Positions 14,716 through 55,223 of a stretch of 64,000 nucleotides of DNA are shown here, piece after piece. The position numbers and the translations under genes are program-made. The DNA comes from Candidatus Woesearchaeota archaeon (GTDB lineage: Archaea > Nanobdellota > Nanobdellia > UBA10117). How positions within the stretch are numbered: the stretch's first letter is position 1; every line of letters starts with the position of its first letter. The stretch spans positions 5,193-69,192 of the forward strand of contig CAYGXM010000004.1 of the NCBI GenBank assembly GCA_964354105.1, read 5' to 3'. Below the pieces are notes generated by a model. It saw only the letters and a program-made list of their open reading frames with translations. It had not been told where the DNA came from and searched no databases.

Positions 14716-14729
14716 CTAAATTCTTAGAA

Positions 14730-34552: not shown

Positions 34553-37500
34553 TTACTGCCTTTTCCGCCTTTCTAGGTATATGAACAGCGCTGCTATTCC
34601 TATCAGTATGAATGCTGCAACTACTGTGTTCTGCACGCCTGCAGCTCCGAATACAGCTGGCAATTTGCCTGTTGCTGCCTGTTGCTGTTTCTTCAGGATT
34701 ACTGCTGCAGCCTTCTGCTTCTCTTCCGCTATCTTTGCCTGGATTTCTGCAACCTTGGCGTTTACAGGAGCTTCCAATGCAGGCTCATTTACAGCCCTCA
34801 AGCCGCCAACTTCCTGCTTTATTTCAGTGGTCTGGCCTTCGTGCTCTGCTGTCAGTGTAAAGCTCATGTTTGGTTCTGGGCTACCCGTTTCAAGCACTCT
34901 GAATAGAATGACTTTATCTTCGCCTGCAATAATTGCCTGCACGCAATCAGATGTAGCCAATACATTGCCGTCTGCATCTAATATGCCTGCTATTTCATAG
35001 CCTTCTGGCACTTGTACGCAGACATCAACTGTCCAGTTTTCTGTGGAGCTAAATACAAATGGGTACAGCTCTTCATTTTCTTCCCATAAGACATAATCAG
35101 CAGATACGACATTTAACTCAGAGCCGATAATGATTTGCCTGTTGCCTGCTTCATACTTCACAGAGCCATACTTGTTGATTATCTTTACAATTCTGAGGTT
35201 CTTTGTCTTGACTATTTCATTTTCTCCTAATGTTACTGAGTCTGAATCATCTTCTTCCTCGTCCTTGCAGCTTCCTTCGCAGCCCCACTCATCGCGGTTG
35301 CAGTCTTTTACCTTGAAGTTCTTCAATCTTCCCTGATAGATTGTTATGCCATTTACAGTGTCAGCATATTTGCCAATTACGAGGAACTTGCCTCCGTATG
35401 CTTCCGGAGCCAAGCAGGCGCCGTCTGCTGCTGTTGTGCATCCGCCGACTAAACCAATGTCTGCTTCAAAGATATTATCATACAAATTCTTTGAAGGATT
35501 GCTTCCATATGTAGATTTGAATAAAGCATCGTTTCTGTCATAGATTTTTACATCCATACCCTCTATTGGAACAGTGCACGTCTCTTTTGCCCTTCCATTC
35601 GAGCCGTAACCGCATATGCCAGATTTCTTCTGGTCCACAATATGCATTACTGCATTTGTTATATCTCCGTATGGGCATCCCTGCAAGTCATAGAATGTTA
35701 TCTTCATGTAATCTGATGAAGGCCTTACACTTGCTTCTGCAAGTATTGACATCACATTAGTTCCTTCTGTTGCAACTGTAAATTCATCCTGGTTGATATT
35801 GCCTTTTACAGCTATGCCATCGCCCTGTTTCTCAAATTTGGCGTTAGCTGTGTTTCTTACCACAACATCTCCATCCAGAGTGGCTTTTGTCTTGTAATAT
35901 ACATATGTGTTTGATGGCAGGCCGTCTCCTTTTACACCAACAACAATTACGCCTGCATTCTTCATGTTGTCATAGCAGCCACCATGTCCGTCATGTCCGC
36001 CACCAGCACATGAAGTGCCTATGCCTGTTGCTTCAACAGCGCCCTGCCTGTCAACTACCCAGACGCCTTTCGGCAATGTGTTGTAGTTTGTATTGTCATC
36101 TATGAAATTGCCTGATGAGTCTTTCAATGGTATGTGGTATTTGCCATCAGCTGATGCAAATACTTCTGTATTTCCAGCGAAGACTCTTTGTGTTGTAACA
36201 GTTGAAGCTGTGCTTGCAAAGTCAAGTATTTCAAGCACGTATTCTGTTGGAGCTGTGAATCCAGGCACGCCTGGGCAATAATCTCCAGTGTCAGTTTGTG
36301 ATTTGGCAATTTCTGTATTGCCTACATTATCAACACTGTAATAATTAATTGTGTGAATTCCTTCAGGTATTGTAACCTGCCCGGTATACGCAACATAAGC
36401 TCCACTGTCAATTGAATAGTAAGTTATATTTACGCCGGATAATGCATCAGTAGCAGCAAGCGTAAATGCATCTGCAAACCCATCATTATCTGAATCAATT
36501 AGAGTCTTTGTTGTAGTTGGAGCGGTAGCATCAACAATAAATATGCCAGAGGCTGTTGCACTATTTCCTGCCTTATCGGTTGCTGCTACAGTTTCAGTGT
36601 GATTGCCTTCTGGCAGAGCAGTTGTCTGGCTGAATGTCCAAGTTCCGGTTTCTCCTGGCAATAGTGAGCCTGTGAATGATGTTAGTGTTGCAGGTATTCC
36701 GGCTGTTCCGTCTTTAGCAATAACAGAATCCTGGCTTGCAAATCCGCTCGTTGCATCACTTGCTTCAGTTATGATTGTAACAGTTCCGCTTGGCGCTACA
36801 TAATTTGGCGTGATTGAAGTTATCATAACTAATGGGCCTGTCCTGTCCAACAGGACTGAGCCGTCTGTATACATTGCAGCATTACCAGCTGCATCTTTAG
36901 CTATATCATAAATAGTGTAAGTGCCGTCTGCAGTACTGCTATCAAATGTGAATGTGCCTTGCCACACGCCGTTATAAGCGTCTCCAGATATCAATGTTAG
37001 CGGTATTTTTCCTACTCCACCTCCTGAGCTATCTTGGACTCCAGCGTCAACACTAGCAACTCCTGCAAGGTTGTCTGTTACAGTCTTTGTAATAGTAATT
37101 GTTGCAGTCTGGCCAACTAAGTCAGGTGTTACAGTTGCATCTACTATAGTTGGAACAGATTTATCTACGCTAATAGTGTCGCATTTTGCAGGAGTTTCTG
37201 TATTGCCTGCCGCATCAATGGAATAATAGCAGATTGTTGTTGCTCCTTCGCTTGATACTGTAAATGGCGTTGATGCTATTTCAAAAGTGCCGCCATTTAT
37301 GTTATAATATGTTGTTGCACAGCCACTGATATCATCTGTGCAAGATAATGTAACTTGAACATCTGAAGTGTACCAATTATTATTGCCCATTGTTCCTACA
37401 TAGGTTGCAGTTGTTACTGGAGGAGTTGTATCGCAGTATGGGCTAGTCAAACAGGCAGAATCATCGCAGTCTGTATAGCCGTCACAGCTGTCATCTATGC

Positions 37501-39979
37501 CGTTATTGCAGATTTCAGTTATTGGGAAAACCGTCTGGCTGCAGCTTAATGAGCCGCTAGAGCAGATGTACTCGCCAATTGCACAAGCACCAGGCAGGCC
37601 AGTATCACAAGCAGTGCCTTGCTCTGGGAATGTTTCATCTATTTGAATATCACAATCATCATCTACACCATTGCAAACTTCTGTTGCACCTGGATAAATG
37701 CTTGGATTATTATCATTACAATCAGTTGTTCCGCAGGCAAGTGTTGCCTGTGGTTTAAACGTGGCTGCACCTGAGACTGAACTTATTGGAAGCCCGCAAG
37801 CATTATTTCTGCAGATTGTGCGTGGATCATCGGAATTTTGGCAGTTGTACTGCGTAGAAAGCATTGTAGTGCCTGAGCAATAATATTCAGTTAGCATGTA
37901 ATTTGATGTGCAGATATCGCATTTTGTTGTCCCACTCGCTGTGGTACAACCGGCGACAGGATAATCAATACCGAGATCAGTTTCTGTACAAGTTGGTGCT
38001 ATGCAAACACCATTTGAGCAAGTCCATCCAGGGCCAAATTCGACATCACAGTCGATATCCTGGTATAGCCTGCTTCCCCCGCTGCAGTAATATTCTCTCA
38101 AGTCTATGTTGCCATCGACGATGCAGCCATCACCCAAACAGTCCCCATCGATGCAAGTTTTTCCTTTAACAATATAATTAAGACCGCCATCTGTATCTGT
38201 ACAAGTTACTGGGCAGTCGCTTGGGCAAGTTGCATAAGTTTCATATGGAGAATTGCAGATGCCGTCTCCGCAATATGCGCTTATGTTGCTGCCATTATAA
38301 CTATCTCCATCGTTATCGATGCAGGCAGCTCCGCATAAGTCATCATACTCGCAGTTAGGATCGTTGCAATCATACAAGCCATCACAGTCATTATCTATAT
38401 GATCGCCGCAATTGTTAGTTTCTATGCCTGGTGGCAATGGCGTGCAGTGGTCAACATATGTTCCGCCTTCGCATGCCTTGTATCCAGTATTTTCACAAGC
38501 GCCAATTCCGCAAGTGATTGTTTGTGTTGGTATGCCTTCATCAATCTCTGCAGGTACATCGCAATCATCATCTATTCCATTACAGGTTTCTGAAGTTGGC
38601 GCGCATGACAAACTAGGAATCCAGGCAACATTTTGACTATCTATTCCTCTACATGATGTTCCAGGATCGCAAGTCATGCTGCAGTCTGTTGGTGTTTGTG
38701 CTGGACAGGTATCACTATAACCAGTGCAATATGCTGTAGGCAGGTAAGTTCCCACTAAAGTACACAGATTCTGGCAGAAAGTATATGCACAATCAGTAGA
38801 TGAAGCACATATTACATCTGAATTTTGATAAGCATCTGTCGGGCAATATGCGTTTGAGCCCGTACATGTTTCAGCTATGTCACAAGCGCCTGCAGCTGCT
38901 CTGCAAACATTGCCTGTGCTGAAAGTACATTCATTTGGCTGGCCTGCAGGTATACAACAAACCTCGCCATCACACTGCTCTGTTCCTTCAACTAGGTCGT
39001 TTCCGCAGACTTGTGCAGGTGGTGTAGTGTAAAATGGAAGGTAAGCATTAGTTGTTGCCAGGGAGCTGTGCAATCCGCGAACGAAATTATACAGGCCCTG
39101 CGCATTTACATTTGCAAAAACAGCTGTTGGCAGTCTGCCCCATGATGATGCAGATACAGTAGGGTTAATGCTCGTCCAGAAGCTATTGGTTCTTACGGAT
39201 GCACGCTGAAATTGACTTACAGTGCTGAAAGAGTATGTATCCCAGCAGTTACCGGAGAATGTTACGCCTGTAAACTTCAGTTCATTTTCGTTGTAAGTGG
39301 TTAATACCAACTTATTCTTGACGCCAGCCTGGCTTCCTGCAACAATATCATCTGCCGGCGGTGTTGCATCTGGGTTTATTGAAGAGCCTGCATATAACCG
39401 CGGGTAATCGATGCCTTGTACAATAGAAGGGGAATTGGAAACATAAAGCTGATTTGGAACTCCAGGAATATAATCTGTTCCGAGCTTCAGCTTGCCTTCA
39501 TTTGGTATTGTGCCCTGGAAATTGGCAAAATAAATTGTTGGCGCATACGAGCCTGTTACGCCATCTGCTGTCTTGAACCATGCGTTTCCGAGCAGATAGT
39601 CCCAAGCTTTAAGAGATTCATCTTCCGGATTAATTGCTGCGCAAATTATATACCCTGGCTTGTTTGGTATAAGCTCGCTGATGTCTGCTATGTTCTTTGG
39701 CGTATTTGGCATTAAATTATAATCAACACTATTTTGCATGCACTGTGTGCCATCACTATAGATAAAGACGCATCTTACTGTTACGGAATCTGTCAAATGT
39801 GTATTATGCAGCACTATCTTTGTATTTTGTATTGCGAGATTATTGGAGTCTGTTGTGAATATAGGAAATAGCAATCCGCTACCCGGCCTGTCAAAAGGAG
39901 CGGCGGTTGCGGCTGGCATGAATGCGAGGGCTGCAGCTAACAAAACGAAGACTGCCAGTAATAATATTTTGGTTTTCAT
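34553..39979 (-). CDS. 1808-aa secreted, C-terminally anchored Cys-rich surface protein (N-terminal 'Y' domain)
   Basis: Signal peptide 'MKTKILLLAVFVLLAAALAFMPAATA'. Y domain at approximately aa 27-320. Cys-rich modules include 'CNGIDDDCD' and 'CNGVDDDCD', plus 'CTDTDGG' modules. Ig-like repeats ('T.YYSID..GN.E'). C-terminal TM 'VVAAFILIGIAALFIYLERRKRQ'. Confidence 0.85.
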   Translation of the reverse strand: MKTKILLLAVFVLLAAALAFMPAATAAPFDRPGSGLLFPIFTTDSNNLAIQNTKIVLHNTHLTDSVTVRCVFIYSDGTQCMQNSVDYNLMPNTPKNIADISELIPNKPGYIICAAINPEDESLKAWDYLLGNAWFKTADGVTGSYAPTIYFANFQGTIPNEGKLKLGTDYIPGVPNQLYVSNSPSIVQGIDYPRLYAGSSINPDATPPADDIVAGSQAGVKNKLVLTTYNENELKFTGVTFSGNCWDTYSFSTVSQFQRASVRTNSFWTSINPTVSASSWGRLPTAVFANVNAQGLYNFVRGLHSSLATTNAYLPFYTTPPAQVCGNDLVEGTEQCDGEVCCIPAGQPNECTFSTGNVCRAAAGACDIAETCTGSNAYCPTDAYQNSDVICASSTDCAYTFCQNLCTLVGTYLPTAYCTGYSDTCPAQTPTDCSMTCDPGTSCRGIDSQNVAWIPSLSCAPTSETCNGIDDDCDVPAEIDEGIPTQTITCGIGACENTGYKACEGGTYVDHCTPLPPGIETNNCGDHIDNDCDGLYDCNDPNCEYDDLCGAACIDNDGDSYNGSNISAYCGDGICNSPYETYATCPSDCPVTCTDTDGGLNYIVKGKTCIDGDCLGDGCIVDGNIDLREYYCSGGSRLYQDIDCDVEFGPGWTCSNGVCIAPTCTETDLGIDYPVAGCTTASGTTKCDICTSNYMLTEYYCSGTTMLSTQYNCQNSDDPRTICRNNACGLPISSVSGAATFKPQATLACGTTDCNDNNPSIYPGATEVCNGVDDDCDIQIDETFPEQGTACDTGLPGACAIGEYICSSGSLSCSQTVFPITEICNNGIDDSCDGYTDCDDSACLTSPYCDTTPPVTTATYVGTMGNNNWYTSDVQVTLSCTDDISGCATTYYNINGGTFEIASTPFTVSSEGATTICYYSIDAAGNTETPAKCDTISVDKSVPTIVDATVTPDLVGQTATITITKTVTDNLAGVASVDAGVQDSSGGGVGKIPLTLISGDAYNGVWQGTFTFDSSTADGTYTIYDIAKDAAGNAAMYTDGSVLLDRTGPLVMITSITPNYVAPSGTVTIITEASDATSGFASQDSVIAKDGTAGIPATLTSFTGSLLPGETGTWTFSQTTALPEGNHTETVAATDKAGNSATASGIFIVDATAPTTTKTLIDSDNDGFADAFTLAATDALSGVNITYYSIDSGAYVAYTGQVTIPEGIHTINYYSVDNVGNTEIAKSQTDTGDYCPGVPGFTAPTEYVLEILDFASTASTVTTQRVFAGNTEVFASADGKYHIPLKDSSGNFIDDNTNYNTLPKGVWVVDRQGAVEATGIGTSCAGGGHDGHGGCYDNMKNAGVIVVGVKGDGLPSNTYVYYKTKATLDGDVVVRNTANAKFEKQGDGIAVKGNINQDEFTVATEGTNVMSILAEASVRPSSDYMKITFYDLQGCPYGDITNAVMHIVDQKKSGICGYGSNGRAKETCTVPIEGMDVKIYDRNDALFKSTYGSNPSKNLYDNIFEADIGLVGGCTTAADGACLAPEAYGGKFLVIGKYADTVNGITIYQGRLKNFKVKDCNRDEWGCEGSCKDEEEDDSDSVTLGENEIVKTKNLRIVKIINKYGSVKYEAGNRQIIIGSELNVVSADYVLWEENEELYPFVFSSTENWTVDVCVQVPEGYEIAGILDADGNVLATSDCVQAIIAGEDKVILFRVLETGSPEPNMSFTLTAEHEGQTTEIKQEVGGLRAVNEPALEAPVNAKVAEIQAKIAEEKQKAAAVILKKQQQAATGKLPAVFGAAGVQNTVVAAFILIGIAALFIYLERRKRQ
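37994..38203 (-). repeat. 'CTDTDGG...' Cys-rich module, approximately 90% nt identity to 42153-42362 in the neighbouring gene
   Basis: A by-eye alignment shows identical runs of 23, 66, 40 and 14 nt, e.g. 'atatcctggtatagcctgcttcccccgctgcagtaatattctctcaagtctatgttgccatcgac' in both copies. Confidence 0.85.
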
Positions 39980-39980
39980 C

Positions 39981-42900
39981 TTAAGCCTCCTCTCCTGGAT
40001 AGTTGATGATTACGGTTGGACATCCTCCGGTGCAAGTGCCTGCCAGCACATTGACTCCGCTGTATGCATTCGGCAAGCTGCGTTCATTTACATCATAGTG
40101 CACATACGCGCCTAAGATTGCCGGCGTAGTCCCTGAAGCCTGAATCTTGATTGTTCCTGTTTCAGAACCTAGGTCGTTGCGCGAGAATGCAGAAGATATG
40201 CTGTTGAGCGGCGTGTACAGGTAACAGGAGTTAAGAGTTTGGGCTATAGATTGCCCACTTCCACTTTCGCTGTATGCTGTGAAAACATTTGTAACTGGCG
40301 TAAAGCTTGAACCGTCAGCCAAATTTGTAAGCGGGGACATGAGCGCAAGATTGTTGTCTGAGTCTGTGTCTGATGCTAGATAGCCTGGCATGAGCAGTGT
40401 GTTTGGCCATTTTTCAAGATATACTCCATCAAATCGCAAGCTTCCTGTCGGGCCTGCCAGGCCGTTCAGTGACCTGAAGCCAATCATATTATAGCTGCCA
40501 TAATGTCCTGTGTCTTCTTCCTTGAATTCTACACTTCCAATCAAAGTGTTGTGGCCTAGTGCATTTCCATTCATATCACTTGTATAAGCAATCATGTAGC
40601 CTGTTGTTCCTGGCGCTATGTCTGAAACTAAGAAAGGAGGATATGGCTGATTCCTTGTGAGAGTAAATGACATATCAGATACAAAACAGCCGTCAGCGCT
40701 AATGAAATATGCTTTTACATATTCCGTAATTGTACCAGTGTTAGTTAGTATGATTGTCGTGTCTCCAGCGCTTGTTGTATAGAAAGGTGCAATCAGCACT
40801 GCAGCTGGGAGGTTTGTTGCGTCTCTTGAAGGTATTGTAACAGCGCATACAGGATCTTGTGCACAATCACTGTCTGCACAGTCAATTAGGTCATCTCTAT
40901 CATCATCCTTGTTATTATTGCATACTTCAGGCACAGGCGGACAGCTTTGTGAGCAAGTCAGGCCTGTATTTGCATCGTCATCCCGCAAGTAATCGCAAGT
41001 ATTGTCACTTCCGGAATTGCCAGTTGAGTCTTGAGTTAGGAATATATCATTATTGCGATTCGCGCAAGCTATATTATCTGTTAGGTTATTATTGTTAGAC
41101 CCGGCCATAACGATTATGCCGTCGAGATTATAACTAATGTTATTGTTATAAATGGAATTCAGCCCAGACTGCATACCAATAGAAAGGCCACCTCCAACAT
41201 TCGAGCTTATAGTATTGCCGTCTATTGTGTTATAAGAAGACGATTGATCAAACCTAATACCTTGCTGATTATCGTATATGTTATTATTAGTCAGCCTGCT
41301 ATTGCTGATATGCCTTAGAGAAATTGCAGTTCCCCAATCTCGTATTACGCAATTCTTTATCAAGACATTATTTCTTGATTGTGCCATTATGCCTGTCCAG
41401 CCGGTGCTCACACCTGGTCCTATTAACGACTGGTCGTTGCAGTCTAAAACAACATTATCTGCTAGTATGGTAATGCAAGGCTCCCTAGATGGTTGTGTTA
41501 TGTCAGTCTGCAATTGGTACGTCTTTCCTGCTTGGTCTAGGGACTGGCATTCCGTTATGATAATAGGCAGGCAATATGGATCTTGTGCACAATCGCTGTC
41601 TGCACAGTCAATTAATTGATCACCATCATCATCAATTTGGTTGTTGCAGATTTCTGGAACTGGGCAGGGCGTGCAGGTCAATTGCGGATTATCACCTGTG
41701 TCGCCTGATGGACCATTACAGATATTGACTCCTATGTTTGACGCACTTCCTTCTATAACGATGTTGTTATCATATTCATTATTGCAGACATGGTTATTAC
41801 TCACCAGGTTGTCGTTTGAGTTGTAATAAAGGAAAATGCCAGCCTGCCAATTGTCATGGACTGTGTTATTGATCAGATTGCTGTTCTGCACAGAGTTGAA
41901 TTGGATGCCGTTATCGAAATTAGTTATGATGCAATTCTTTACTGTGATTCCATTTACGGACTCAGCATATATGCCATTACCACTGCCATAGCCTGTGCCT
42001 GCTATTGTATGCCCACCACAATCTAAAATGATATTACTTGCGTAGAAGCTGAAGCACTGGTCATATCCATCATCAATGTTATTCTGCAGGATGTACGTAG
42101 CTCCTGCTTGGTCTAGGGACTGGCAGCCATAAACTGGGATCTCTGTTGGCTGAGGTGCTACGCAGGCACCATTTAAGCAAGTCCATCCAGGGCCAAATTC
42201 GACTTCGCAGAGGATATCCTGGTATAGCCTGCTTCCCCCGCTGCAGTAATATTCTCTCAAGTCTATGTTGCCATCGACTATGCAACCATCTGCCATGCAG
42301 TCCCCATCGATGCAAGTTTTTCCTTTAACAATATAATTAATACCGCCGTCTGTATCTGTACAAGCTGTTGGAGTTATGCAGGCAGTGCAGTCAGCATTGC
42401 AAACAAGATTTGGCTCATATGATGGGCTGAATGAATTTCCATTAAAGCAGCCATTTGTTCCGCCTGGAGGATCGCAAAGCTCTCCAGCTTCAATGATTTC
42501 GTTTCCGCAGAATGCTGCTTGCACATTTACATTAACAGTCCTTGTTGCAGACATGCCTGTTCTGCTGTATGAGTCTGTTGCTGTCGCGTAATAGCTATGC
42601 CAGCCATTTGCTATGTTATTTATTGTAACTGTACAGTCTGCTGTTGTCGGATCTATCTGCGTGCAAGGCATTGTATAAGGATTGCTGTCAAAGTATAATG
42701 TTGCGGATGTTATGGAAGATGCACCAAAAGTCTTTGTTGCAGAGCCTGAGGTTGAAATCCCCTGACCTCCTACACAAGCTCCTTCGTCGCAAACATATCC
42801 CTTTGGACAATAAGTGTCATAATAAACTGCAGTGCTGCCACTGCAAATTGCCTCGCGGATAGGACTTGGGCCTGTTGCGCTTACACCCATATAATTTAGC

Positions 42901-45900
42901 CCGCAGTCATCACACAACTGTTGGCCTTCTGATGTGCTTACACAAGTAGCAGTATACAAATTAGTTCCATCAGGGTCTGTACAAGTTGGTGCTGGAGGCG
43001 TGCAAGAAGTGCAGTCCGTGCAAGTGTAGCCAGATGGACATCCATTTGGTGTTGCACTTTGGTCGCAGACTTCTCCTGCATCCACTATTTGATTGCCGCA
43101 TACTGGCGGAGGAGGAGCCTGTTCAGTTACTTGGATTTGGAAAGTTATGGAATCAGTTGCTACAGTTGCTCCATCAAAAGGTGTTGGAGGTTCTGTGAAT
43201 GTGATAGCAGGGACTATTGGTGCACAAATAGGGTTTTGTGCACAGTCAGGGTCTGCGCAGTCAATTAATTGATCAGCATCATTATCTATCAAGTCATTAC
43301 ACATAAATTCTACCGGCGGTACTTGCTGGAAGCTGTTGTTGTGTATGGAATTGACTTCTCCGCATATGCCTTGTGAATAATCGCATACAAACGGAGTTAC
43401 TACGTAATAAACTGTGTTGTACGTAACCGTATTATCAATAGATTCTGAAAGCACAATTCCTGTGTTGACATTATTCAAGATGTTGTTTGTAATGTCTGTT
43501 GCATCTGTACTATCAAGGGTTATGCCGACATCTGCATAATTTATGACGTTGTCTTCAATCGGGTCGGTCCCGCTGACACTGCCATATACTGCGTATGTTG
43601 TATAAGAGATGGCATTGCCTTTCTTGGTTGCGCCGTATGTATTATATGAATAAATTCCATAATAGCTGTTTGTTATATTGTTATAGTCGATTTTAATATT
43701 GTTCGAGGACATTGCAGAAATGCCTTTGCCGTCGCTAATACCAAGTCCATTGAGCTCTACATCGTTGAACATGACTGAAGCATTGTCTGAATAAGTTCCC
43801 AAGTTGATTCCAGTCCAATTGTTGTAAGCAATGGTGTTGCTAATTATGTTATTATAATCTGAGTCAAGCGTCGTAATGCCTGATTGCGAATTGTATTCGA
43901 TATAATTATTAATTAAATTATTCCCGGGGCTGCTATTAAGGTATATGCCGTCCTGGCTATTCTGGACGACTGAGTTGCCTATTAAGTTTGTTAGCCCACC
44001 ATTTTCCAGGATAATTCCATTGTTCTTGTTATTCTCTGCATGGTTGTTTGTTATATTCGCATTGGCAATGCTATAATTAGCGGCAGCTCCAAAATAAAGC
44101 CCGCTCAAGTTATTATTGTTAAACACATTGTTGTCTATTGTGCCAGTTATACCTCCGGTTACGCCACTAAAGGAAGCGCCGTATTGATTGTTGTAGCTGA
44201 CAATGTTATTTGTAAAGTTGCCCATCCATGGTGTTGCATTAAAGCCGCTTAGGCCATTGTAATTAATATTATTATTGCTGATGTTGTCCAGGAAGCCCTT
44301 GAATATATATACACCATAGCCTTTGTTATAGCTTGCATTGTTGTTCAATAAAATGTTTTGAGGGTGCGGATATGCGAGGTAATAGATGTCAAAGTTTATG
44401 CCTGATTGATTGTTATAAACTGCTGTATTGTCCTGAAGATAGCAATTGGTATATGCAGAGCGATAACAATATATTCCATTCTTATTGTTGTACTCTACAA
44501 TATTATTGGAGAGGTATGTGTTAAGTAAACTACCAGTGTCTGTGCCCGCCCAGTTAAAGAAAATGCCGTGCTCTCCGTTGTTAAATGCGCTATTGCCTGT
44601 AAAGATATTATTAACGCTTTTCGCGGTTACGAAGCCGCTGAGGCCGTTATAGCTGGCATTGTTGTTATTCAAAGTATTATTATTAGAGCCAGCTGATAAG
44701 ATATAGCTAGGAGTGTTAGGATATATGATTATACCCCAGTAATTATACAGCCATATTCCATACTGTGCATTGTTGTTGAATGTGTTGAATGCTATGTTGC
44801 TATACGAAACATTAATGAGCAATGCTCCTTGCTGGTAATTGTTGCTGAATGTATTGTAAAGAATTTGATCGGATGTGCTGTCATTGATGGCCAGGCCATA
44901 CAGTTGTGCATTGCGGGCATCATTAAACGATATATTGTTGTTCGAAGAGATGTCGTACGACCCTATGCCTATCCGGCCATATCTGATGGTATTATTGTAG
45001 ATTGTGCTTGAGCTGACTTTTGAGAGCGCAAGGCCATAATCACCATAAGGACTCGCATCTATGTAATTGCCTGCCACATAATCATTCACGCCGTTAAGCA
45101 CAATGCCGTGGCCGTAGCCTCCACTTCTTGTAATACCTAATACTTTGTTATTTGTTATGCTGCTGCCGTTTATGTTTGACGCATAAATGCCATGAGCATT
45201 TTGGCCTGCTGCATTAGCTTTGAATGTATTGTTGTTAAACGTACAGGCATTTGCATTTAGAACGTATATGCCATGCTCCATGCCTGTGATAAAGCAATTA
45301 TTGACAGTGATATTTGCCCTGTTAGCTATGTTTACGCCTTTGTCTGCATAAATGTAATCTTTGTTGATTGCATAACCCACGCAGTCAAGCTCTACATTAT
45401 CTGCCTGTATATCAATGCAACTGCCGCTGCCAGTCGCAGTCAGGTTATTTGCCAAAATATAATAGTCCGGCACTGTTATTATGCCGCAGCTGTATAAGGG
45501 CTTGCCGCATCTCTTGCTGCAAGTCACTGAGTTGCTGTCGAGGTCCTGCAGGTTCTTGCAGGTATTGTCTCCTGAATTGCCATTTGAGTCTGCTGATAAT
45601 AAAATATCTTTAACTATATTCTTGCAGGCAGTGTTGTTTAAAATTACGCCGTTATCGCTGTTGCTGAATTTAATGCCATAATACCATTCTGTTACAGCGC
45701 AGTTCTTTATGGTGACATTATTTCTGTTTTCTGCATAAACTCCTATCGAGTCGAGTTTGGTAATGCCGTCAATCATATAGTTCTGGCAGTTCAGTTCGAC
45801 ATTGCTAGTCTGTACATTTATGCAAATGTCTGCTGTTGAATTAGCTATATTATTAGCCAGCACGTAACTGCCTGGCATAGTTATGTTCTTGCAGCCTGTT

Positions 45901-48900
45901 ATTGCTGATAATGCAACATAAACAGTCCTCTGCTCCGTATAGCCCATATTTCCTGCGGTGTCATCAGCCTTTACCTTGAACGTGTATGTGCCGTCTGCCA
46001 GGCTTGTTTTTGACTTCTCGCAGACCACGGAGCTTGTTCCTGCTCCTGAAGTTATTGTCATTGACTCGTCGATGCCATTCCAGGTTAAAGTGCATGAAGA
46101 AATGGCCAGCCTTGCATCATTTGCAGTTACATTTACAGCTATTGTTGCAGTTCTTATTATTGCGCCGTCTGAAGGTGTTGGAGGTACAAATGAAACTGTC
46201 GGGATTGTTGTATCTGCTGTAACAGTTATTGTCCTCTGTTCCGTATAGCCTATATTCCCTGAATTATCATTAGCCTTTGCCTTGAATGTGTACGTACCTG
46301 GTAACAGGCCTGTCTTTGTCTTCCCACACATAACGTGGCTTGTTCCATCGCCCATAGTTATTGGCAACGGCTCTTCTATGCCATTCCATATCAAAGTGCA
46401 TGAAGTTACTATTCCTGAATTTATTGCATCAACATTTATGTCAATTGTTGCCGGGGGCAGGAAGTCGGCGCCATTTGCAGGTGTAGGCGGTGTTACAAAC
46501 GTAACAATTGGGGCTGTTACATCCGGACAGCTTCCTATTGTGCAAGTCAACCCAGTATTTGCATCGTCATCCTGCTTATTTGTACAGGTATTATCTCCTG
46601 AATTGCCTGTTGAATCTGAAGTAAGATAAATATCTTTATTTTTATTTGCGCAGGCAGTGTTGCTTGTTAGCGTGTTGCTATCAGCATTATCGATAACGAT
46701 GCCACGATCCGTATTATTAGTTGCTGTATTTCCTGTTAGTATGTTATTAGTAGTAGATTGGATTCGAATGCCCTCCTGGCGGTTGTTGTTAGCTGTGTTG
46801 TTTGTTAATCTACTGTTAGCAGAGTCGTAGATGTAAATACCAAACAAATTACTGTCAGCTGTATTGTTGATTATTTTGCCATTTGGAGAAAACTGAAAAT
46901 ATATTCCACGAGTAAAGTCTGTAATTATGCAATTCCTTACTGTTACGCCTGTTTTACCATTCGCAAAAATACCATGCTCCCCGCCCGCAATGCTTGCTAT
47001 GGTATGACCATTGCAGTCCAAAACAACACCATCAGCTTTTATGTTAAAGCAAACCGAACCTGCGCCGCTACCACTATACGCAATATCATTTTGCAGGCTA
47101 TATGTGCCTGGTGTTGTTATATTCATGCAGTTTGTTATTAGCACTGGAGCTGTTACTAATGGAGCATAATCTCCGCCAACAGTTATTCCTCCTAGAGAAG
47201 TGAAAGGCAAGTCTGTATCGCCGATTAAGTCGCCATTCAAGTCTTCGCCACCATAGGTTGGCCAGTAATTGCCTGCAATATATGGCCCGCCGATTATATT
47301 CGGGCCTGATGTCTTTGTCGTGTTCCATGAATTTGTGGCTGTGCTTGTCACGCCGTACATGAATTTATTATCATAAATCGAATTGCCGCTTCCACCGCCG
47401 AGTTTTAATTGCGTGTTGAAAATATTATGCGCTATTGTACTGCTTGATGGGTTGAACCACTGCGTGCCGTAGATCGTGCCGCAGTTCGTTATATTGTTGC
47501 GCTCGAAAATTACATTTGAACCACTGCCTTCCAAGCAGCGGCCGTCACTATCTACTACATTATTTCTTACTATGGTATTGCTCGGAATATAAATATCCTG
47601 GCCTCCATTGCCATCATTAGGGTTGCTGTTATGGAAGTAATTGTCCAATATCATATTGCCAGTTCCAAGATTATTTATGCCTGCATAGCTGTGGTATTCG
47701 AAAGTATTGCCCACAATGACGCTTCCGGTCATGCCGCCTGCTTCTATGGCAGTGCCGCCAATAGCGCCACCTATGGCCGCGCCGTTGTTGTAGAAATAGT
47801 TGCTGTAAATTGAAATATAAGTGCCATAAACTGACATGCCTGCAGCCTCAGCGCCACCTTCCGTAGTTATTCTTTGCCCATTATTGGATATATTATTTCC
47901 ACGTACTACAATACCTGTGCTTGGATAGCCGCCTTCAAAGCCTATCGCAATACCAAGTCCGCTATTATTCCAGATTGTATTTGTTTCGAAGAAATTATTT
48001 GACCCGCCGTTTTCCAGGGTAATTCCTCGTACACCATTCGAATTAAACGTATTATTAGTTACATTATTATTCGAAGCTGCTGTAAGATATATGCCATGCT
48101 GATTGTTACTTGCAACGTTGTTGATTATGGTATTGTTGTTTGAATAAATCGCAATGCCATAATAATTATTGCTTGCGGTATTCGAAGTTAAGGTATTTAG
48201 ATTGCAATTTGCATCAATGGTAAATCCGTTGTCTGAATTTATGGCTGTGTTTCCTGTCAAGACATTGCCGCTGCTGATTAATACAGGATAGATTTGTCCA
48301 TAAATGTTGAAGCCGCCATTATTTGCAGTGTTCTGTATCAGCATATTATTGGAGCTGTTGAAGAGGCCGAAAGAGTTGGCTGTGTTTCCTGTCAATGTGT
48401 TGTGTGATGAATAAGCTAACTCCATGCCAACATCATTATCAGCTGTTACTAGATTGTTTGTTATGGTAAGATAAATGCTGTTGTAAGCTGAAAAACCAAC
48501 AAAATTGCTGCTAAACGTATTATTTATTATTTCACTGCTAGCACTATTGGCGTTGATATACATGCCATATCTCCAGTCAGAAGTGACGCAGTTCTTTATT
48601 GTTATGTACTGGCGCCCGTCTGCAACAATGCCTTTTGCAGCCCCCGAATCAATACCATCAATAGTGTGGCCCCCGCAATCAAGGGTAACATCATTTGCCC
48701 GTATATCAATGCAAGAAGAAGTTACAGGGGAATTGATTATGTTCTGTGTTAATCTATACACTCCAGGTGACGTGATATTTTGGCAGCCAGAGATTGGCGT
48801 CGCACAGATTCTTGAGCAGGTTAAGAGGTATTCACCAGATTCGTCATTCAAAGTTGTACAAATATTATCGCCTGAGTTGCCATATGAACCGCCAAAAATG

Positions 48901-51425
48901 TAAATATCCCAGCCATTGCCGCAGGCTGTGTTGTTTACTAATATATTATTAGAACCCACGACAAGGTATATGCCCGCATTATTATTATTGAATGTGTTTC
49001 CATACAGAGCGTTGTAGTCTGAGTTGGAGGCGAAGTAGATGCCATCATTCGAATTGTTGCTGGCTGTGTTGTTTCTTAAATCGTTGTGCGAGCTTGTCTT
49101 GAGATGGATGCCATGATTTAAATTGTTATTAAATGTGTTTCCTGCCACCCAATTATTAGAGCTGGAGTTGAGCAAGATGCCATACTGATTATTGCTGGCT
49201 GTGTTGGAGGATATATTATTATAGGTACCAGAGTGGAGGGAGACGCCATAGTAAAAGTTGTTTAATATGCAATTTTTGACTGTTGCCCCGCCATAATTTA
49301 CCAGCTTGACGCCGCTATAAGGGCTTCCTATATGAGCGCCGGTTATTGTATGGCCAGTGCAGTCTATTGTAGTGTCATTTGCAGCTATTGTGAAGCAATC
49401 TCCTGGTACACCAGTTATATTATTTGTTAAAGCGTAATAGCCCCCTTCGGTGTTTAAAGTCTGGCAGTCAGAGATTAAAGTTGCTGTGATAGGCACGCAA
49501 ATCAATTGCGGACTGTAGCTTAACAGCTTTTCACATCTGTTAATTCCCGTATTATTCCCATATAGTGTATCTGAGATATCATGACCATAACCTCCGTAGG
49601 CCAGGTTATTGTTTAGTACATTGTTATATGAGCTTTCGAGCCAGATGTTGCCGTTCGAATTGTTAGTGACTGTGTTACCTGTCAACAAATTATTATCGCT
49701 GGAGTCGAGCATGACGCCGTATCTGCCGTTGCTGACTATATTATTAATAATACTATTACTGCTGGAATCCATGCCCATGTAGAGGCCGTAAGTAAAGTTG
49801 TATACGCCGCAATTTTTGATTGTCGCGCCACTAACAGCGTTTCCCACCTTGATGCCTTCAGTATAGTAGTCACCACCTGTTATTGAATGGCCCATGCAGT
49901 CTAGTGTGATATCATTTGCGGATATTGTGAAACAATCTCCTGTTATGCCAGTTATGTCATTCATTAAAGTGTAATAGGCTCCTGTAGTGTTTAAATCCTG
50001 GCAATTGGTTAGGTTAAAAGGATTGTAAGGGGTTAAGGTGAGGGCAGTTCTAGTTTCTGAATGGCCTATGTTGCCTGCAGCATCATCGGCGTATGCAGTA
50101 TAGGTGTGCGTGCCCAAAGACAAGCTAGTTGTGTAATCGCAGGTTACAGAATTTCCAGTGCCTATTTTTGTCATTGAATAAGTTGAACCATCGATGTCGA
50201 GCCAGCAGGAATTTATTGATGAATTGGCGTCTACTGCAGAAACATTAACAGTTATTGTATATGGAGGCAATACAAATGTACCATTAGCAGGCGTAGGGTC
50301 TATAAAATATACTGTAGGAATAATCATGTCAGAGCTATTGTAATAAGGCGTGACATCTGCTACAGTCAGGCCGCTGAGCTTTACAGGATCCGGTGCTCCG
50401 CCCCAATAATTGTAAGTCAGGTCATTGTTTGTGCTGCCGGTGCTTTGGGCATTGTATAATACATTGTCGTATATGAGGTTTTGCTTTGCACTATTATTAT
50501 AAGAATTGTTAAGTGTAAGGCCATATTGATTGTACTGTATCCTATTTGTGATAATATTATTATACCTGCTTTCGTTAAAATAAATGCCCCGGGTATTATT
50601 TTGAATTGTGTTATCAGTAATGTTAGAGGCGTCTACACCCATAAATTTGATTCCGTATGCCCCAAACTTTATCGTGTTTCCTGCTATGCTGAAATCATGA
50701 ACCGGGTGAACAAATTCGTGGTCGATAAGAATATTTTCATTGGTGGCTCCGCCTAATATGTCATTGTAGTCTATTATGACGTATGAAGAATCATATGTAT
50801 AAATGTTTTTACCGTTATTGGCAAAGGTATTATGGGTTATACTGCTATTGGCGCTAAAAAGACTTTGAAAGAAAACGCCTTGCTGGCTCCAAGAAATTGT
50901 GTTATCAGAGATTCTTATATTTGACGCTCCGTATGCGTGAATACCATCATACCACTTTGTTATGTTGCAGTTTTTAATTTCGATATTTTGTATTTCAGTT
51001 GTAAGTGGCCATATGAGTATCGCAACTTGCTGCGGATCGGCTGTATCCAATCTATATCTGCCTTCGATTGCAAATCCATTACAATCGAAAGTAACATCGC
51101 TTGCTTGAATAGTAATGCAATAGCCAGCTGAGCTGTTAAGTATGTTCCCACTTAACGAATAAGAACCGGAAGAAGAAATTGTTTGGCAGCTTGAAACTTC
51201 TACACCGCCGCCGCCAGGCAAGCCGCCGATGCCTAAACTTTGCGGCGCAGGTTCTGGAGGCTGCATCTGTGGCTGCTCAGGAGCAGAATTTTCCGGTGCA
51301 TTTGCATCCGGCAGATCAACGCTGAAAAGCCCTGTGAGATTTGCACTTGACGCTACTACAACTAGCGCACCTACTGCAACTAGCACTAGGACTAGAATAC
51401 TAACTTGGCCTTGCCTCCTACACAT
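39981..51425 (-). CDS. 3814-aa surface protein with nine parallel-beta-helix (PbH1/NosD-like) modules and C-terminal 'X' domain
   Basis: N-terminal anchor or signal 'VSILVLVLVAVGALVVVASSA'. Nine caps of the form 'C..I...G.Y.L..NI....C..I.A..V.LDC.GH.I.G', each followed by runs of approximately 22-aa 'NNTA.NN..GI.L..S..N.L' repeats. Interspersed Ig-like and Cys-rich modules. X domain in the last 284 aa. Confidence 0.85.
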   Translation of the reverse strand: MCRRQGQVSILVLVLVAVGALVVVASSANLTGLFSVDLPDANAPENSAPEQPQMQPPEPAPQSLGIGGLPGGGGVEVSSCQTISSSGSYSLSGNILNSSAGYCITIQASDVTFDCNGFAIEGRYRLDTADPQQVAILIWPLTTEIQNIEIKNCNITKWYDGIHAYGASNIRISDNTISWSQQGVFFQSLFSANSSITHNTFANNGKNIYTYDSSYVIIDYNDILGGATNENILIDHEFVHPVHDFSIAGNTIKFGAYGIKFMGVDASNITDNTIQNNTRGIYFNESRYNNIITNRIQYNQYGLTLNNSYNNSAKQNLIYDNVLYNAQSTGSTNNDLTYNYWGGAPDPVKLSGLTVADVTPYYNSSDMIIPTVYFIDPTPANGTFVLPPYTITVNVSAVDANSSINSCWLDIDGSTYSMTKIGTGNSVTCDYTTSLSLGTHTYTAYADDAAGNIGHSETRTALTLTPYNPFNLTNCQDLNTTGAYYTLMNDITGITGDCFTISANDITLDCMGHSITGGDYYTEGIKVGNAVSGATIKNCGVYNFTYGLYMGMDSSSNSIINNIVSNGRYGVMLDSSDNNLLTGNTVTNNSNGNIWLESSYNNVLNNNLAYGGYGHDISDTLYGNNTGINRCEKLLSYSPQLICVPITATLISDCQTLNTEGGYYALTNNITGVPGDCFTIAANDTTIDCTGHTITGAHIGSPYSGVKLVNYGGATVKNCILNNFYYGVSLHSGTYNNISSNTASNNQYGILLNSSSNNWVAGNTFNNNLNHGIHLKTSSHNDLRNNTASNNSNDGIYFASNSDYNALYGNTFNNNNAGIYLVVGSNNILVNNTACGNGWDIYIFGGSYGNSGDNICTTLNDESGEYLLTCSRICATPISGCQNITSPGVYRLTQNIINSPVTSSCIDIRANDVTLDCGGHTIDGIDSGAAKGIVADGRQYITIKNCVTSDWRYGMYINANSASSEIINNTFSSNFVGFSAYNSIYLTITNNLVTADNDVGMELAYSSHNTLTGNTANSFGLFNSSNNMLIQNTANNGGFNIYGQIYPVLISSGNVLTGNTAINSDNGFTIDANCNLNTLTSNTASNNYYGIAIYSNNNTIINNVASNNQHGIYLTAASNNNVTNNTFNSNGVRGITLENGGSNNFFETNTIWNNSGLGIAIGFEGGYPSTGIVVRGNNISNNGQRITTEGGAEAAGMSVYGTYISIYSNYFYNNGAAIGGAIGGTAIEAGGMTGSVIVGNTFEYHSYAGINNLGTGNMILDNYFHNSNPNDGNGGQDIYIPSNTIVRNNVVDSDGRCLEGSGSNVIFERNNITNCGTIYGTQWFNPSSSTIAHNIFNTQLKLGGGSGNSIYDNKFMYGVTSTATNSWNTTKTSGPNIIGGPYIAGNYWPTYGGEDLNGDLIGDTDLPFTSLGGITVGGDYAPLVTAPVLITNCMNITTPGTYSLQNDIAYSGSGAGSVCFNIKADGVVLDCNGHTIASIAGGEHGIFANGKTGVTVRNCIITDFTRGIYFQFSPNGKIINNTADSNLFGIYIYDSANSRLTNNTANNNRQEGIRIQSTTNNILTGNTATNNTDRGIVIDNADSNTLTSNTACANKNKDIYLTSDSTGNSGDNTCTNKQDDDANTGLTCTIGSCPDVTAPIVTFVTPPTPANGADFLPPATIDINVDAINSGIVTSCTLIWNGIEEPLPITMGDGTSHVMCGKTKTGLLPGTYTFKAKANDNSGNIGYTEQRTITVTADTTIPTVSFVPPTPSDGAIIRTATIAVNVTANDARLAISSCTLTWNGIDESMTITSGAGTSSVVCEKSKTSLADGTYTFKVKADDTAGNMGYTEQRTVYVALSAITGCKNITMPGSYVLANNIANSTADICINVQTSNVELNCQNYMIDGITKLDSIGVYAENRNNVTIKNCAVTEWYYGIKFSNSDNGVILNNTACKNIVKDILLSADSNGNSGDNTCKNLQDLDSNSVTCSKRCGKPLYSCGIITVPDYYILANNLTATGSGSCIDIQADNVELDCVGYAINKDYIYADKGVNIANRANITVNNCFITGMEHGIYVLNANACTFNNNTFKANAAGQNAHGIYASNINGSSITNNKVLGITRSGGYGHGIVLNGVNDYVAGNYIDASPYGDYGLALSKVSSSTIYNNTIRYGRIGIGSYDISSNNNISFNDARNAQLYGLAINDSTSDQILYNTFSNNYQQGALLINVSYSNIAFNTFNNNAQYGIWLYNYWGIIIYPNTPSYILSAGSNNNTLNNNNASYNGLSGFVTAKSVNNIFTGNSAFNNGEHGIFFNWAGTDTGSLLNTYLSNNIVEYNNKNGIYCYRSAYTNCYLQDNTAVYNNQSGINFDIYYLAYPHPQNILLNNNASYNKGYGVYIFKGFLDNISNNNINYNGLSGFNATPWMGNFTNNIVSYNNQYGASFSGVTGGITGTIDNNVFNNNNLSGLYFGAAANYSIANANITNNHAENNKNNGIILENGGLTNLIGNSVVQNSQDGIYLNSSPGNNLINNYIEYNSQSGITTLDSDYNNIISNTIAYNNWTGINLGTYSDNASVMFNDVELNGLGISDGKGISAMSSNNIKIDYNNITNSYYGIYSYNTYGATKKGNAISYTTYAVYGSVSGTDPIEDNVINYADVGITLDSTDATDITNNILNNVNTGIVLSESIDNTVTYNTVYYVVTPFVCDYSQGICGEVNSIHNNSFQQVPPVEFMCNDLIDNDADQLIDCADPDCAQNPICAPIVPAITFTEPPTPFDGATVATDSITFQIQVTEQAPPPPVCGNQIVDAGEVCDQSATPNGCPSGYTCTDCTSCTPPAPTCTDPDGTNLYTATCVSTSEGQQLCDDCGLNYMGVSATGPSPIREAICSGSTAVYYDTYCPKGYVCDEGACVGGQGISTSGSATKTFGASSITSATLYFDSNPYTMPCTQIDPTTADCTVTINNIANGWHSYYATATDSYSRTGMSATRTVNVNVQAAFCGNEIIEAGELCDPPGGTNGCFNGNSFSPSYEPNLVCNADCTACITPTACTDTDGGINYIVKGKTCIDGDCMADGCIVDGNIDLREYYCSGGSRLYQDILCEVEFGPGWTCLNGACVAPQPTEIPVYGCQSLDQAGATYILQNNIDDGYDQCFSFYASNIILDCGGHTIAGTGYGSGNGIYAESVNGITVKNCIITNFDNGIQFNSVQNSNLINNTVHDNWQAGIFLYYNSNDNLVSNNHVCNNEYDNNIVIEGSASNIGVNICNGPSGDTGDNPQLTCTPCPVPEICNNQIDDDGDQLIDCADSDCAQDPYCLPIIITECQSLDQAGKTYQLQTDITQPSREPCITILADNVVLDCNDQSLIGPGVSTGWTGIMAQSRNNVLIKNCVIRDWGTAISLRHISNSRLTNNNIYDNQQGIRFDQSSSYNTIDGNTISSNVGGGLSIGMQSGLNSIYNNNISYNLDGIIVMAGSNNNNLTDNIACANRNNDIFLTQDSTGNSGSDNTCDYLRDDDANTGLTCSQSCPPVPEVCNNNKDDDRDDLIDCADSDCAQDPVCAVTIPSRDATNLPAAVLIAPFYTTSAGDTTIILTNTGTITEYVKAYFISADGCFVSDMSFTLTRNQPYPPFLVSDIAPGTTGYMIAYTSDMNGNALGHNTLIGSVEFKEEDTGHYGSYNMIGFRSLNGLAGPTGSLRFDGVYLEKWPNTLLMPGYLASDTDSDNNLALMSPLTNLADGSSFTPVTNVFTAYSESGSGQSIAQTLNSCYLYTPLNSISSAFSRNDLGSETGTIKIQASGTTPAILGAYVHYDVNERSLPNAYSGVNVLAGTCTGGCPTVIINYPGEEA
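39986..39990 (-). promoter_or_regulatory. GGAGG Shine-Dalgarno inside the last codons of the 3814-aa ORF, 6 nt before the ATG of the 1808-aa ORF
   Basis: The minus strand reads ...GGAGAGGAGGCTTAAGATGAAAACC. The TAA stop (39981-83) and the ATG (39977-79) are separated by 1 nt. Confidence 0.55.
45925..46530 (-). repeat. tandem duplication of an approximately 100-aa Ig-like domain inside the 3814-aa ORF
   Basis: 'TAPIVTFVTPPTPANGADF...SCTLIWNGIEE...GTYTFKAKANDNSGNIGYTEQRTITV' is followed by 'TIPTVSFVPPTPSDGAII...SCTLTWNGIDE...GTYTFKVKADDTAGNMGYTEQRTVYV'. Confidence 0.8.
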
Positions 51426-54383: not shown

Positions 54384-55223
54384 TTATAAATATCTTTTCT
54401 TATGCACGGTTAAATATCGCCTTATGAAATAATCCACAAAGCCCTTCTCTTTCCTGTGAAATGCCCTGTAATAAGACTTTCTTTTTGCATATTCAATAAT
54501 CAACATTGGATAACAATTATGCCAAAGGATGTAATTCATTATCAGCCGCCCTACTCTGCCATTTCCATCCCCAAAGGGATGTACTGTTTCAAATCGATAG
54601 TGCGCCCTTGCGGCTAATTCTACAGGGTTCATACCACTATCATTAACGAATTCTATAAAACCTGTCATAAGCCACTCTACATCCTGCCAGTCCGGAGCAA
54701 TATAAGTTCCAACTCTGACTAGAAAATCCCGAAAACGGCCTGCAATATCGGGCTTAGTTTCACTAAATATCTCTTTGTGCCATTTTAACAGTAAATCTTT
54801 TGATATTTTCTCTTTTGTTGCCAACATTTCTAAAAATACTTTAAAATGCGCTTCAGTCTCTCTAATGTCTTTTAATGGCTTGTTCGGTGCTGTCTTGTCA
54901 ACTATTATCCCCCTAGTTTCATCTAAAGTAATGGTTGAGCCTTCAATAGCATTTGTGTTATAAGTAAACGCTATCGCTATCTCTTCATTTTCCCTTTGCT
55001 TGGCGCTTTCGGGAGATCTTTTCCATTCTTTCTGAAAATTATCATGTATCTTTTGCAGCTTATCATATAGTGCCTTTTGCCCTTCTTTTCTCAGTTCTTG
55101 TTTTATTTCCTCGATGTTCTTAGGGACGCTCTTTCCAAGGTACTTCTCTCGCGTCACTATTTTGCCGTCTTCTCTAAATGAGTGCTTTAGGTAAAAATAA
55201 CCATTCCTCTCGACGATTCTCAT
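54384..55223 (-). CDS. Fic/DOC-family protein (probable AMPylase) with intramolecular inhibitory motif
   Basis: Fic motif 'HPFGDGNGRVGR' (HxFx[D/E]GNGRxxR). Upstream 'TNAIEG' matches the [S/T]xxxE[G/N] inhibitory-helix motif. Confidence 0.85.
   Translation of the reverse strand: MRIVERNGYFYLKHSFREDGKIVTREKYLGKSVPKNIEEIKQELRKEGQKALYDKLQKIHDNFQKEWKRSPESAKQRENEEIAIAFTYNTNAIEGSTITLDETRGIIVDKTAPNKPLKDIRETEAHFKVFLEMLATKEKISKDLLLKWHKEIFSETKPDIAGRFRDFLVRVGTYIAPDWQDVEWLMTGFIEFVNDSGMNPVELAARAHYRFETVHPFGDGNGRVGRLIMNYILWHNCYPMLIIEYAKRKSYYRAFHRKEKGFVDYFIRRYLTVHKKRYL

Follow-up and report, generated by a model that had tools for sequence, protein, structure and literature searches.

Why would the last domain of one giant surface protein and the first domain of the next be related to each other, and why would the two genes meet at so tight a junction? 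The question is raised by a stretch of 64,000 nucleotides (below, the window) from a Candidatus Woesearchaeota archaeon (contig CAYGXM010000004.1 of assembly GCA_964354105.1, positions 5,193–69,192), in which a gene ending in a domain called X is followed at once by a gene beginning with a domain called Y, at two separate loci. A preliminary description of this DNA, made from its letters and its translated open reading frames (ORFs), had proposed that X and Y are either a cognate docking or assembly pair or a shared export or anchoring module. The analysis reported here leads us to conclude that X and Y are specialised paralogs, both versions of a single domain of ~290 residues that had not been described before and is predicted to be a double beta-sandwich. 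Judged from sequence, the two would form a cognate docking pair, a heterodimeric 'clasp', and we put the probability of this reading at about 0.45.

The window is a piece of an ordinary archaeal chromosome, encoding aEF-2 (942 bits at a cut-off of 738), EF-1alpha, a tRNA-splicing endonuclease, Gly- and Asn-tRNA ligases, two ribonucleotide reductases and four tRNAs. Its aEF-2, EF-1alpha and endonuclease (EndA) mark it as archaeal, and a DPANN-type affiliation is plausible. The four genes of interest, A and B at the first locus and C and D at the second, all lie on the minus strand (Table 1). X1 (39981–40835), at the end of the product of A, and the 356-amino-acid ORF of gene C (62160–63230) are 44% identical over 297 columns (E 7e-68). 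Similarly, Y1 at the N-terminus of the 1808-amino-acid ORF and Y2 at the N-terminus of the ORF ending at 59888 are 43% identical over 328 columns (E 2e-77). Each domain thus does have a paralog at a second locus in the same order and on the same strand, as had been described, and all of the motifs quoted for X and for Y were found in the alignments. The mutual resemblance of X and Y, also noted earlier, is true homology, since X1 and Y1 align with 29% identity over 150 residues at an E value of 8e-10.

The alignment of X and Y spans all ~290 residues and contains 12 invariant columns, two of them Cys, and a combined XY hidden Markov model (HMM) scores 322–391 bits on the four window copies. 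The residues shared by X, Y and one bacterial member are L14, T26, N32, C50, L59, G79, L98, G100, K105, G110, P144 and C204; Cys50 and Cys204 are invariant throughout X and Y. Residues that are invariant in one subfamily and distinguish it from the other cluster at positions 92–141, around the border of the two predicted sandwiches. A six-frame HMM scan of the whole window revealed two copies of X and two of Y, and none further.

The two domains occupy fixed places in otherwise complex proteins. The product of A starts with MCRRQGQ and a single hydrophobic helix (residues 8–26), continues with many right-handed beta-helix (NosD/Beta_helix) and Ig-like domains (Pfam NosD, 517 bits in 13 stretches; Beta_helix, 490 bits in 16 stretches) and passes through Cys/Asp-rich knot repeats into X. 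In the product of B a Sec-type signal peptide and Y are followed by a Cys-rich region with weak disintegrin-like and MopE-like matches, by Ig-like domains and by a C-terminal membrane helix with the basic tail RRKRQ. The earlier statement that the junction links two giant proteins is correct for this pair; it does not extend to the second locus, where the X protein has 356 amino acids, or to most related loci, where X proteins have 356–379. A shared export or anchoring module, the second of the earlier suggestions, is unlikely for the archaeal proteins, each of which already comes with an N-terminal signal or anchor of its own; the complete Y proteins also have a C-terminal membrane helix, and X and Y occupy the ends that lie opposite to these anchors.

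Both junctions are built as the preliminary description had it. At the first, the stop codon TAA and the ATG are separated by a 1-nt spacer, with a Shine-Dalgarno-like GGAGG 6 nt ahead of the ATG, and at the second the genes overlap by 17 nt. In a second assembly of this region (L087), where the second locus is identical, genes called independently give D the same ATG as its start and a length of 762 amino acids. This very tight spacing, a 1-nt spacer or an overlap, is the one observation in favour of the view that A and B are a single gene, either disrupted by a frameshift error in sequencing or translated across the junction through programmed recoding, with X and Y as an internal tandem repeat. 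That view is rejected, because the Y of every locus has its own Met, basic stretch and hydrophobic signal peptide (MKTK-ILLLAV...), and because the length and the frame of the junction vary from locus to locus (+1, +1, +3, +4, +7, +8, -4 and -17 nt). There is also a ribosome-binding site ahead of the ATG, and the independent assembly reproduces the second locus exactly. A broken or recoded gene is effectively refuted and almost certainly wrong.

To look for relatives, we applied word-indexed searches to 5.8 billion protein clusters, fetched the contigs and compared neighbouring ORFs by BLASTP. These cluster searches found very few close relatives. In all eight informative archaeal loci (the two of the window, L001, L002, L004, L005, L008 and L009) a gene ending in X is followed on the same strand by a gene starting with Y, at a distance of at most 8 nt or with an overlap. 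The contig of one more locus, L088 (protein P0017), stops within X and stands outside this count. An X gene was likewise found directly upstream of all four Y-type cluster representatives detected among 1.84 billion representative proteins. Thus the survey of related genomes, which had been suggested as a check, gave the order X upstream of Y in eight loci out of eight. Neither species-representative genomes, searched with the X alignment, nor metagenome contigs of the Joint Genome Institute (JGI), searched with both alignments, nor viral contigs yielded further archaeal loci; the X–Y gene pair has been seen in a rare group of uncultured archaea.

The placement of the domains is as regular as the order of the genes. 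Archaeal X is always at the extreme C-terminus and archaeal Y always directly follows a Sec-type signal peptide, while the middle parts vary by locus, with NosD-type beta-helix modules, Cys-rich knots and Ig-like domains among them. Those Y proteins that are complete (B, D and P0006) have a single membrane helix and a basic tail at their C-terminus. The X proteins open with one long hydrophobic stretch. In that of L002, the start of which is most likely the GTG at 8162, this is apparently a cleavable signal only (MNRPSALALLVLFASCAQA, followed by ILS), with no membrane helix, and a partner would be required to keep the protein on the cell. From its sequence, the FASC stretch of this protein could be a lipid-attachment site.

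In the window clade the X proteins begin with M[RK]R.GQ[AV]S[AI]L, 18–20 hydrophobic residues and N[FL]TGFS[ST]F..QPL, an N-terminus that they have in common with P0004, a beta-helix protein of related type that lacks X; five N-termini share its first two elements. Where the hydrophobic stretch begins, an invariant Gly-Gln resembles an archaeal class III (pilin-like) cleavage site; Gln would be at +1 and Ser at +3, and there is no Glu at +5. The N-termini of X proteins gave no match to the Pfam model Class_IIIsignal (QxSxExxxL) even at E<=10, and neither a prepilin peptidase nor a pilus ATPase was found among that part of the window ORFs that was scanned. X proteins of the clade formed by L008, L009 and P0017 start with MGFGKTD instead. 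In this MGFGK-type clade a conserved protein of ~260 amino acids, which matches no family and has two hydrophobic helices at its N-terminus, is encoded directly upstream of X (L008 2053–2835, L088 1–753), and in L008 it is preceded by another unmatched membrane protein, of 367 amino acids. Both may be accessory components of the X–Y module in this clade.

Comparison of the loci at the nucleotide level by blastn revealed that X, the junction and Y are retained as a unit. The locus L001 and the window share a single aligned block of 1897 bp (window 40928–39032, L001 3101–4985; 86.6% nucleotide identity), which begins ~90 nt ahead of X and ends at the end of Y. In L004 the aligned part (40626–39029, 77% identity) has the same end point as in L001. 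Outside this ~1.9-kb block both are unrelated to the first locus of the window, and the flanking parts of both proteins have been replaced: the X protein of L001 has 373–388 amino acids, depending on the start codon, versus 3814 in A. The tail of the L001 Y protein is 94% identical to a third giant protein of the window genome, encoded upstream of C (L001 9893–10589 versus L087 1048–1744), and in this close relative the protein is a mosaic of a B-like Y and the beta-helix part of that third protein. The working parts have thus been traded around a connector that stays fixed, and the mosaic indicates recent recombination among surface-protein loci. The gene of the third giant protein ends just upstream of C, and the part recovered lacks the N-terminus. 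Its C-terminal module (CGDG.C...C..DC, membrane helix and basic tail) is common to D and to a 404-amino-acid ORF of L006.

In a rough neighbour-joining tree the sequences form three clades, namely archaeal X, archaeal Y and all bacterial copies, and the X and Y subtrees are nearly congruent. Pairwise identities among X and among Y correlate with r = 0.94 (five complete pairs), while the identity of X to Y is flat at 16–23%, with no homogenisation between the two. From the separate clades and the flat cross identity it follows that the split between X and Y is old and that the two pairs of the window arose by duplication of a whole pair.

Which family do these domains belong to? Neither X nor Y had a Pfam match at E<=1, an NCBIfam match, or a relevant PDB match at E<=10 in sequence-profile searches, and no description of such a domain or module was found in the literature searched; the earlier failure to name a family was thus borne out. 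The AlphaFold2 model of X1, based on an alignment of 11 sequences, is all-beta, with ~20 strands in two sandwiches (predicted local distance difference test, pLDDT, 82.7; predicted TM-score, pTM, 0.85). In the model of Y1 the first sandwich (residues 9–128) is confident and the second half is poor. According to these models the fold of X and Y is a double beta-sandwich. In Foldseek searches against the PDB with both models the sole convincing neighbour was TM1070 of Thermotoga maritima (1nc7), which matches the N-terminal sandwich (probability 1.0, target-normalised TM-score 0.66–0.68, ~125 columns, 11–13% identity). The second sandwich, of ~150 residues, had no structural match. Weak PDB matches to arrestin, vicilin and antibodies (TM-scores 0.1–0.2) were dismissed, and a Foldseek search against viral structures gave noise only, with TM-scores below 0.3.

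TM1070 is Thermotoga's ortholog of the transducer of Anabaena sensory rhodopsin (ASRT), a member of the ASRT/ASRAH family (Pfam DUF1362) with an eight-stranded sandwich, which is predicted to bind sugars or small molecules and has been compared with the carbohydrate-binding module (CBM) CBM4-2 (PMC2739507). TM1070 is depicted there as a tetramer, and so a sandwich of this type can oligomerise. The N-terminal half of X and Y resembles this family in its TM1070-type eight-stranded sandwich. However, X and Y carry a second sandwich of ~150 residues, and the conserved Trp of strand 1 is missing in both X (LPAAVLIAPF) and Y (RPGSxLxFPxF). Moreover, the ASRT sandwich makes up small single-domain proteins of the cytoplasm or forms part of secreted enzymes, whereas X and Y cap giant surface proteins. 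With no sequence match and no strand-1 Trp, the relationship to ASRT is at the level of the fold only.

The match to TM1070 alone among known structures, together with the ligand binding predicted for its family (PMC2739507), gives substance to the main rival explanation, that X and Y are independent lectin- or CBM-like 'head' domains at the far ends of two adhesins, which never touch each other and are neighbours through co-expression, their ligand, a glycan or some other, being on a host cell, on a substrate or on the envelope of the archaeon itself. The location of both domains at the ends opposite to the membrane anchors agrees with it, and the several conserved Cys residues would suit a stable extracellular binding module. 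But it leaves unexplained why the domain is always C-terminal in the upstream and N-terminal in the downstream protein, why the X-junction-Y block is retained while its surroundings are swapped, and why the two subfamilies are kept up 1:1. In addition, the short X proteins tether the domain only ~35–90 residues from the membrane, a poor reach to an external ligand, and the Trp of ASRT and any Pfam match are lacking. We consider independent head domains unlikely.

Relatives outside the archaea are numerous. A profile search of 1.84 billion representative proteins returned 1992 clusters (defined at 50% identity) at E<=1e-3 and 632 at E<=1e-30. Among 157 proteins, comprising the best 150 profile matches and earlier finds, 128 have the domain solely at the extreme C-terminus of a larger protein and 15 have two or three copies per chain. 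Named members come from Blastocatellia and other Acidobacteriota metagenome-assembled genomes and are annotated as 'Ig domain-containing protein', 'Ig-like domain repeat protein' or 'hypothetical protein' (e.g., MFN7948286.1; MEO6724306.1). Species-representative genomes gave at least 560 matches, at least 14 of them in one 9.5-Mb genome. The best 80 records are mostly titled Acidobacteriota or Blastocatellia, with a sizeable minority of 'Heliomicrobium' or 'Heliobacteriaceae', labels that we suspect to be mis-assigned.

The bacterial domain is homologous to X and Y, has ~290–300 residues and, like X, normally stands at the extreme C-terminus. The three share a common core consisting of NT-x-[ILVF]-x-[LIM]-TN[TV], GY, L-x-G-x-x-x-x-K, a Gly, a Pro and two invariant Cys. 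It differs from them in forming a clade of its own, in having a fixed tail (...IP[IV]FPP[NSG]C) and in occurring in dozens of copies per genome on unrelated proteins, with partners such as Calx-beta, He_PIG, Big_3_5 and DUF11. Scans of seven members against Pfam and NCBIfam yielded no model for the domain. An HMM of the bacterial C-terminal domain scores 146–185 bits on X of L009, L005 and L008 and ~46–63 on X and Y of the window, and X of L009 ends in ...YPIFPVFC, close to the bacterial tail. On these scores X looks like the archaeal counterpart of the bacterial domain, and Y like a derived paralog. As far as sequence can tell, the bacterial version looks like an uncatalogued C-terminal surface-protein domain system.

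Such a system brings to mind a C-terminal sorting or attachment domain, read by a surface-assembly machinery or a common receptor, of which X would be the archaeal counterpart and Y a derived copy with another role. In all 77 top-ranked bacterial loci fetched with flanks (L010–L086) the end of the domain is flush with the stop codon, and the domain is conserved (63–76% identity to the query over the best matching segment) while the attached parts differ; this conservation, the fixed tail, the copy number in the 9.5-Mb genome and the HMM scores of the three archaeal X domains all speak for it. Yet the 77 loci have no recurrent neighbour (clusters of flanking ORFs were mostly spurious antisense ORFs), and no conserved machinery gene was found around them or among the scanned ORFs of the window. 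The archaeal X and Y proteins have ordinary export signals and anchors, and in some bacterial proteins the domain is also N-terminal and mid-chain. At ~300 residues the domain is, to our knowledge, far above the size of any known sorting tag. In scans of the archaeal X and Y and of the seven bacterial members, no curated Pfam or NCBIfam model of a C-terminal sorting tag (type IX secretion system C-terminal domain, or T9SS CTD; PEP-CTERM, PGF-CTERM and similar) or of an autotransporter barrel matched, and the X model is two sandwiches and not a barrel. A sorting domain is quite improbable on this balance.

A parallel among such tags is the T9SS CTD of Bacteroidota, which is much shorter than the X/Y domain; archaea, moreover, have no outer membrane. 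The resemblance lies in the pattern: a conserved beta-sandwich stands at the C-terminus of many unrelated surface or secreted proteins of one genome, as is seen with the bacterial relatives of X. The T9SS CTD is a single sandwich that is cleaved off in sorting (PMC4804311). It differs in showing no sequence match to the X/Y family, members of which also occur N-terminally, mid-chain and in archaea.

We return to the docking pair. X would cap the C-terminal end of an upstream chain, mostly held by its N-terminal hydrophobic anchor and at one locus apparently secreted, and Y would cap the N-terminal end of a downstream chain held in the membrane by its C-terminal helix. Translational coupling would deliver both chains together and in equal amounts, and after export X would dock on Y, joining the two chains into one surface assembly, in which the variable middles (beta-helix, Ig-like, Cys-rich) would be exchangeable working parts. 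This reading is the best supported by the strict adjacency and coupling of the genes, the position of both domains at the ends opposite to the anchors, the 1:1 subfamilies, the inheritance as a cassette, the subfamily-specific residues at 92–141 and the apparently helix-less X protein of L002. The genomic predictions that the preliminary description allowed to be tested have been borne out (adjacency in eight of eight loci, r = 0.94, near-congruent trees, a 1.9-kb block, no characterised family for either domain); the binding itself we infer.

Docking of this kind is familiar from cohesin and dockerin of the cellulosome and from the C-to-N docking domains of polyketide synthases, in which a terminal domain binds a cognate domain on another chain and modular proteins made separately are thereby assembled in a set manner. 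In polyketide synthases, as with X and Y, the gene of the C-terminal partner lies immediately ahead of that of the N-terminal one. The analogy is functional only, with no tie of sequence or fold, and X and Y differ from these pairs in being paralogs of each other, of ~290 residues each; no Pfam cohesin or dockerin is present in A, B, C or D. A terminal docking pair would be a system of a known kind, and its X–Y version appears to be built on an uncatalogued domain family. In bacteria, L091 contains two domain-only genes followed by a gene for a protein with N-terminal, middle and C-terminal copies, and this locus and the multi-copy chains are a hint, of the Rosetta-stone type, that copies of the domain may act together.

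Several points weigh against a docking pair: (i) not only the physical binding of X to Y but also the geometry of the assembly rests on inference; (ii) if both chains stayed anchored in the same membrane, docking would force them into a loop, a geometry for which we know of no described precedent; (iii) there are only eight archaeal loci, several of them on short contigs; (iv) co-divergence and congruent trees are expected of any neighbouring co-inherited genes; (v) in none of the 77 top-ranked bacterial loci, 17 of which have two genes for the domain in tandem, was a tightly coupled X-then-Y junction found, and most bacterial relatives are single C-terminal copies without a Y-like partner; and (vi) by analogy, the binding of sugars or small molecules proposed for ASRT/ASRAH (PMC2739507) would favour a role in ligand binding.

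How giant surface proteins are assembled and displayed in archaea, including the small-genome archaea that live attached to other cells, is largely unknown. If a two-gene clasp does exist, it offers a concrete and testable rule of assembly, that X docks on Y, and explains the swapping of modules around a fixed connector. A wider proposal, which we regard as doubtful, is that X and Y are a new clasp of paralogous double beta-sandwiches tying a secreted or N-anchored chain to a C-anchored one, letting small-genome archaea build very long modular fibres or arches, and that the Acidobacteriota domain is the docking element of an undescribed surface-assembly system serving dozens of proteins per genome. 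Independently of it, a large uncatalogued family (~2000 clusters with no Pfam, NCBIfam or PDB entry) has been exposed, which marks the C-terminus of many surface proteins of Acidobacteriota. These are abundant soil bacteria whose cell-surface biology is poorly understood, and a defined domain, with a hypothesis of binding that can be tested, provides an entry point for both groups.

Table 1. Coordinates of the genes, domains and junctions of the two window loci, and junctions of the related archaeal loci.
Feature	Position	Strand	Description
Gene A	39981–51425	-	3814 amino acids; ends in X1
X1 domain	39984–40835	-	last 284 amino acids of A; X-HMM 471 bits
Junction 1	39977–39990	-	GGAGG (39990–39986), CT, TAA (39983–39981), G, ATG of B (39979–39977)
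Gene B	34553–39979	-	1808 amino acids; begins with signal peptide and Y1
Y1 domain	39020–39901	-	B residues ~27–320, directly after the signal peptide; Y-HMM 560 bits
Conserved cassette	39030–40928	-	Cys/Asp knot, X, junction, signal peptide, Y; blastn
Gene C	62160–63230	-	356 amino acids; N-terminal MKGQSGQ, hydrophobic helix at residues 10–28, linker of ~35 amino acids, X2
X2 domain	62163–63035	-	X-HMM 452 bits
Junction 2	62160–62176	-	ATGGCGTACCCTTGTAA; 17-nt overlap, stop of C with ATG of D
Gene D	59888–62176	-	762 amino acids from the ATG at 62176; signal peptide, Y2, Ig-like, C-terminal membrane helix and basic tail
Y2 domain	61235–62104	-	Y-HMM 474 bits
Third large beta-helix surface protein, 3' end	63287–64000	-	leaves the window; at least 1137 amino acids in L087 (L087 2–3415)
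Conserved X-type N-terminus	51330–51425, 63120–63230		also L001 2894–3010, L005 42–150, L006 1539–1650
L001, X–Y junction			1-nt spacer
L002, X–Y junction			3-nt spacer
L004, X–Y junction			7-nt spacer
L005, X–Y junction			ATGA overlap (4 nt); downstream ORF starts MKTKQIVLAV, then contig end
L008, X–Y junction			8-nt spacer
L009, X–Y junction			4-nt spacer

Some other features of the window deserve mention. Just downstream of D a predicted surface protein of 817 amino acids is encoded (57332–59785, minus strand), with repeated Ig-like modules (FixG_C, NPCBM_assoc), an acidic region that is rich in Asn, Glu and Thr and holds many N-x-T sequons, and a membrane helix at the C-terminus. ORFs containing NPCBM_assoc or the C-terminal tail of this protein are located upstream of the X gene of L001 and of the beta-helix gene of L006. 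Between the two X–Y loci there are genes for a Fic/DOC-family protein (54384–55223) and for a TPR-containing protein of 809 amino acids (51609–54038), both on the minus strand.

Further away, ORFs of 725, 383, 380 and 298 amino acids (5201–7378 on the minus strand; 7430–8581, 8556–9698 and 10200–11096 on the plus strand) had no NCBIfam match, and the 725-amino-acid ORF, the one of the four scanned against Pfam, had none there either. The two genes for the large subunit of ribonucleotide reductase (17965–20157 and 23699–26176, minus strand) lie less than 6 kb apart, one with an ATP-cone domain and the other with a C-terminal TSCPD domain. Finally, two of the four tRNA genes (3020–3110 and 14630–14716, plus strand) are over-long, with 91 and 87 nt, and the anticodon of one could not be read by ARAGORN. 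Their length is consistent with archaeal tRNA introns, and the gene for the tRNA-splicing endonuclease (EndA) is located at 55485–56162.

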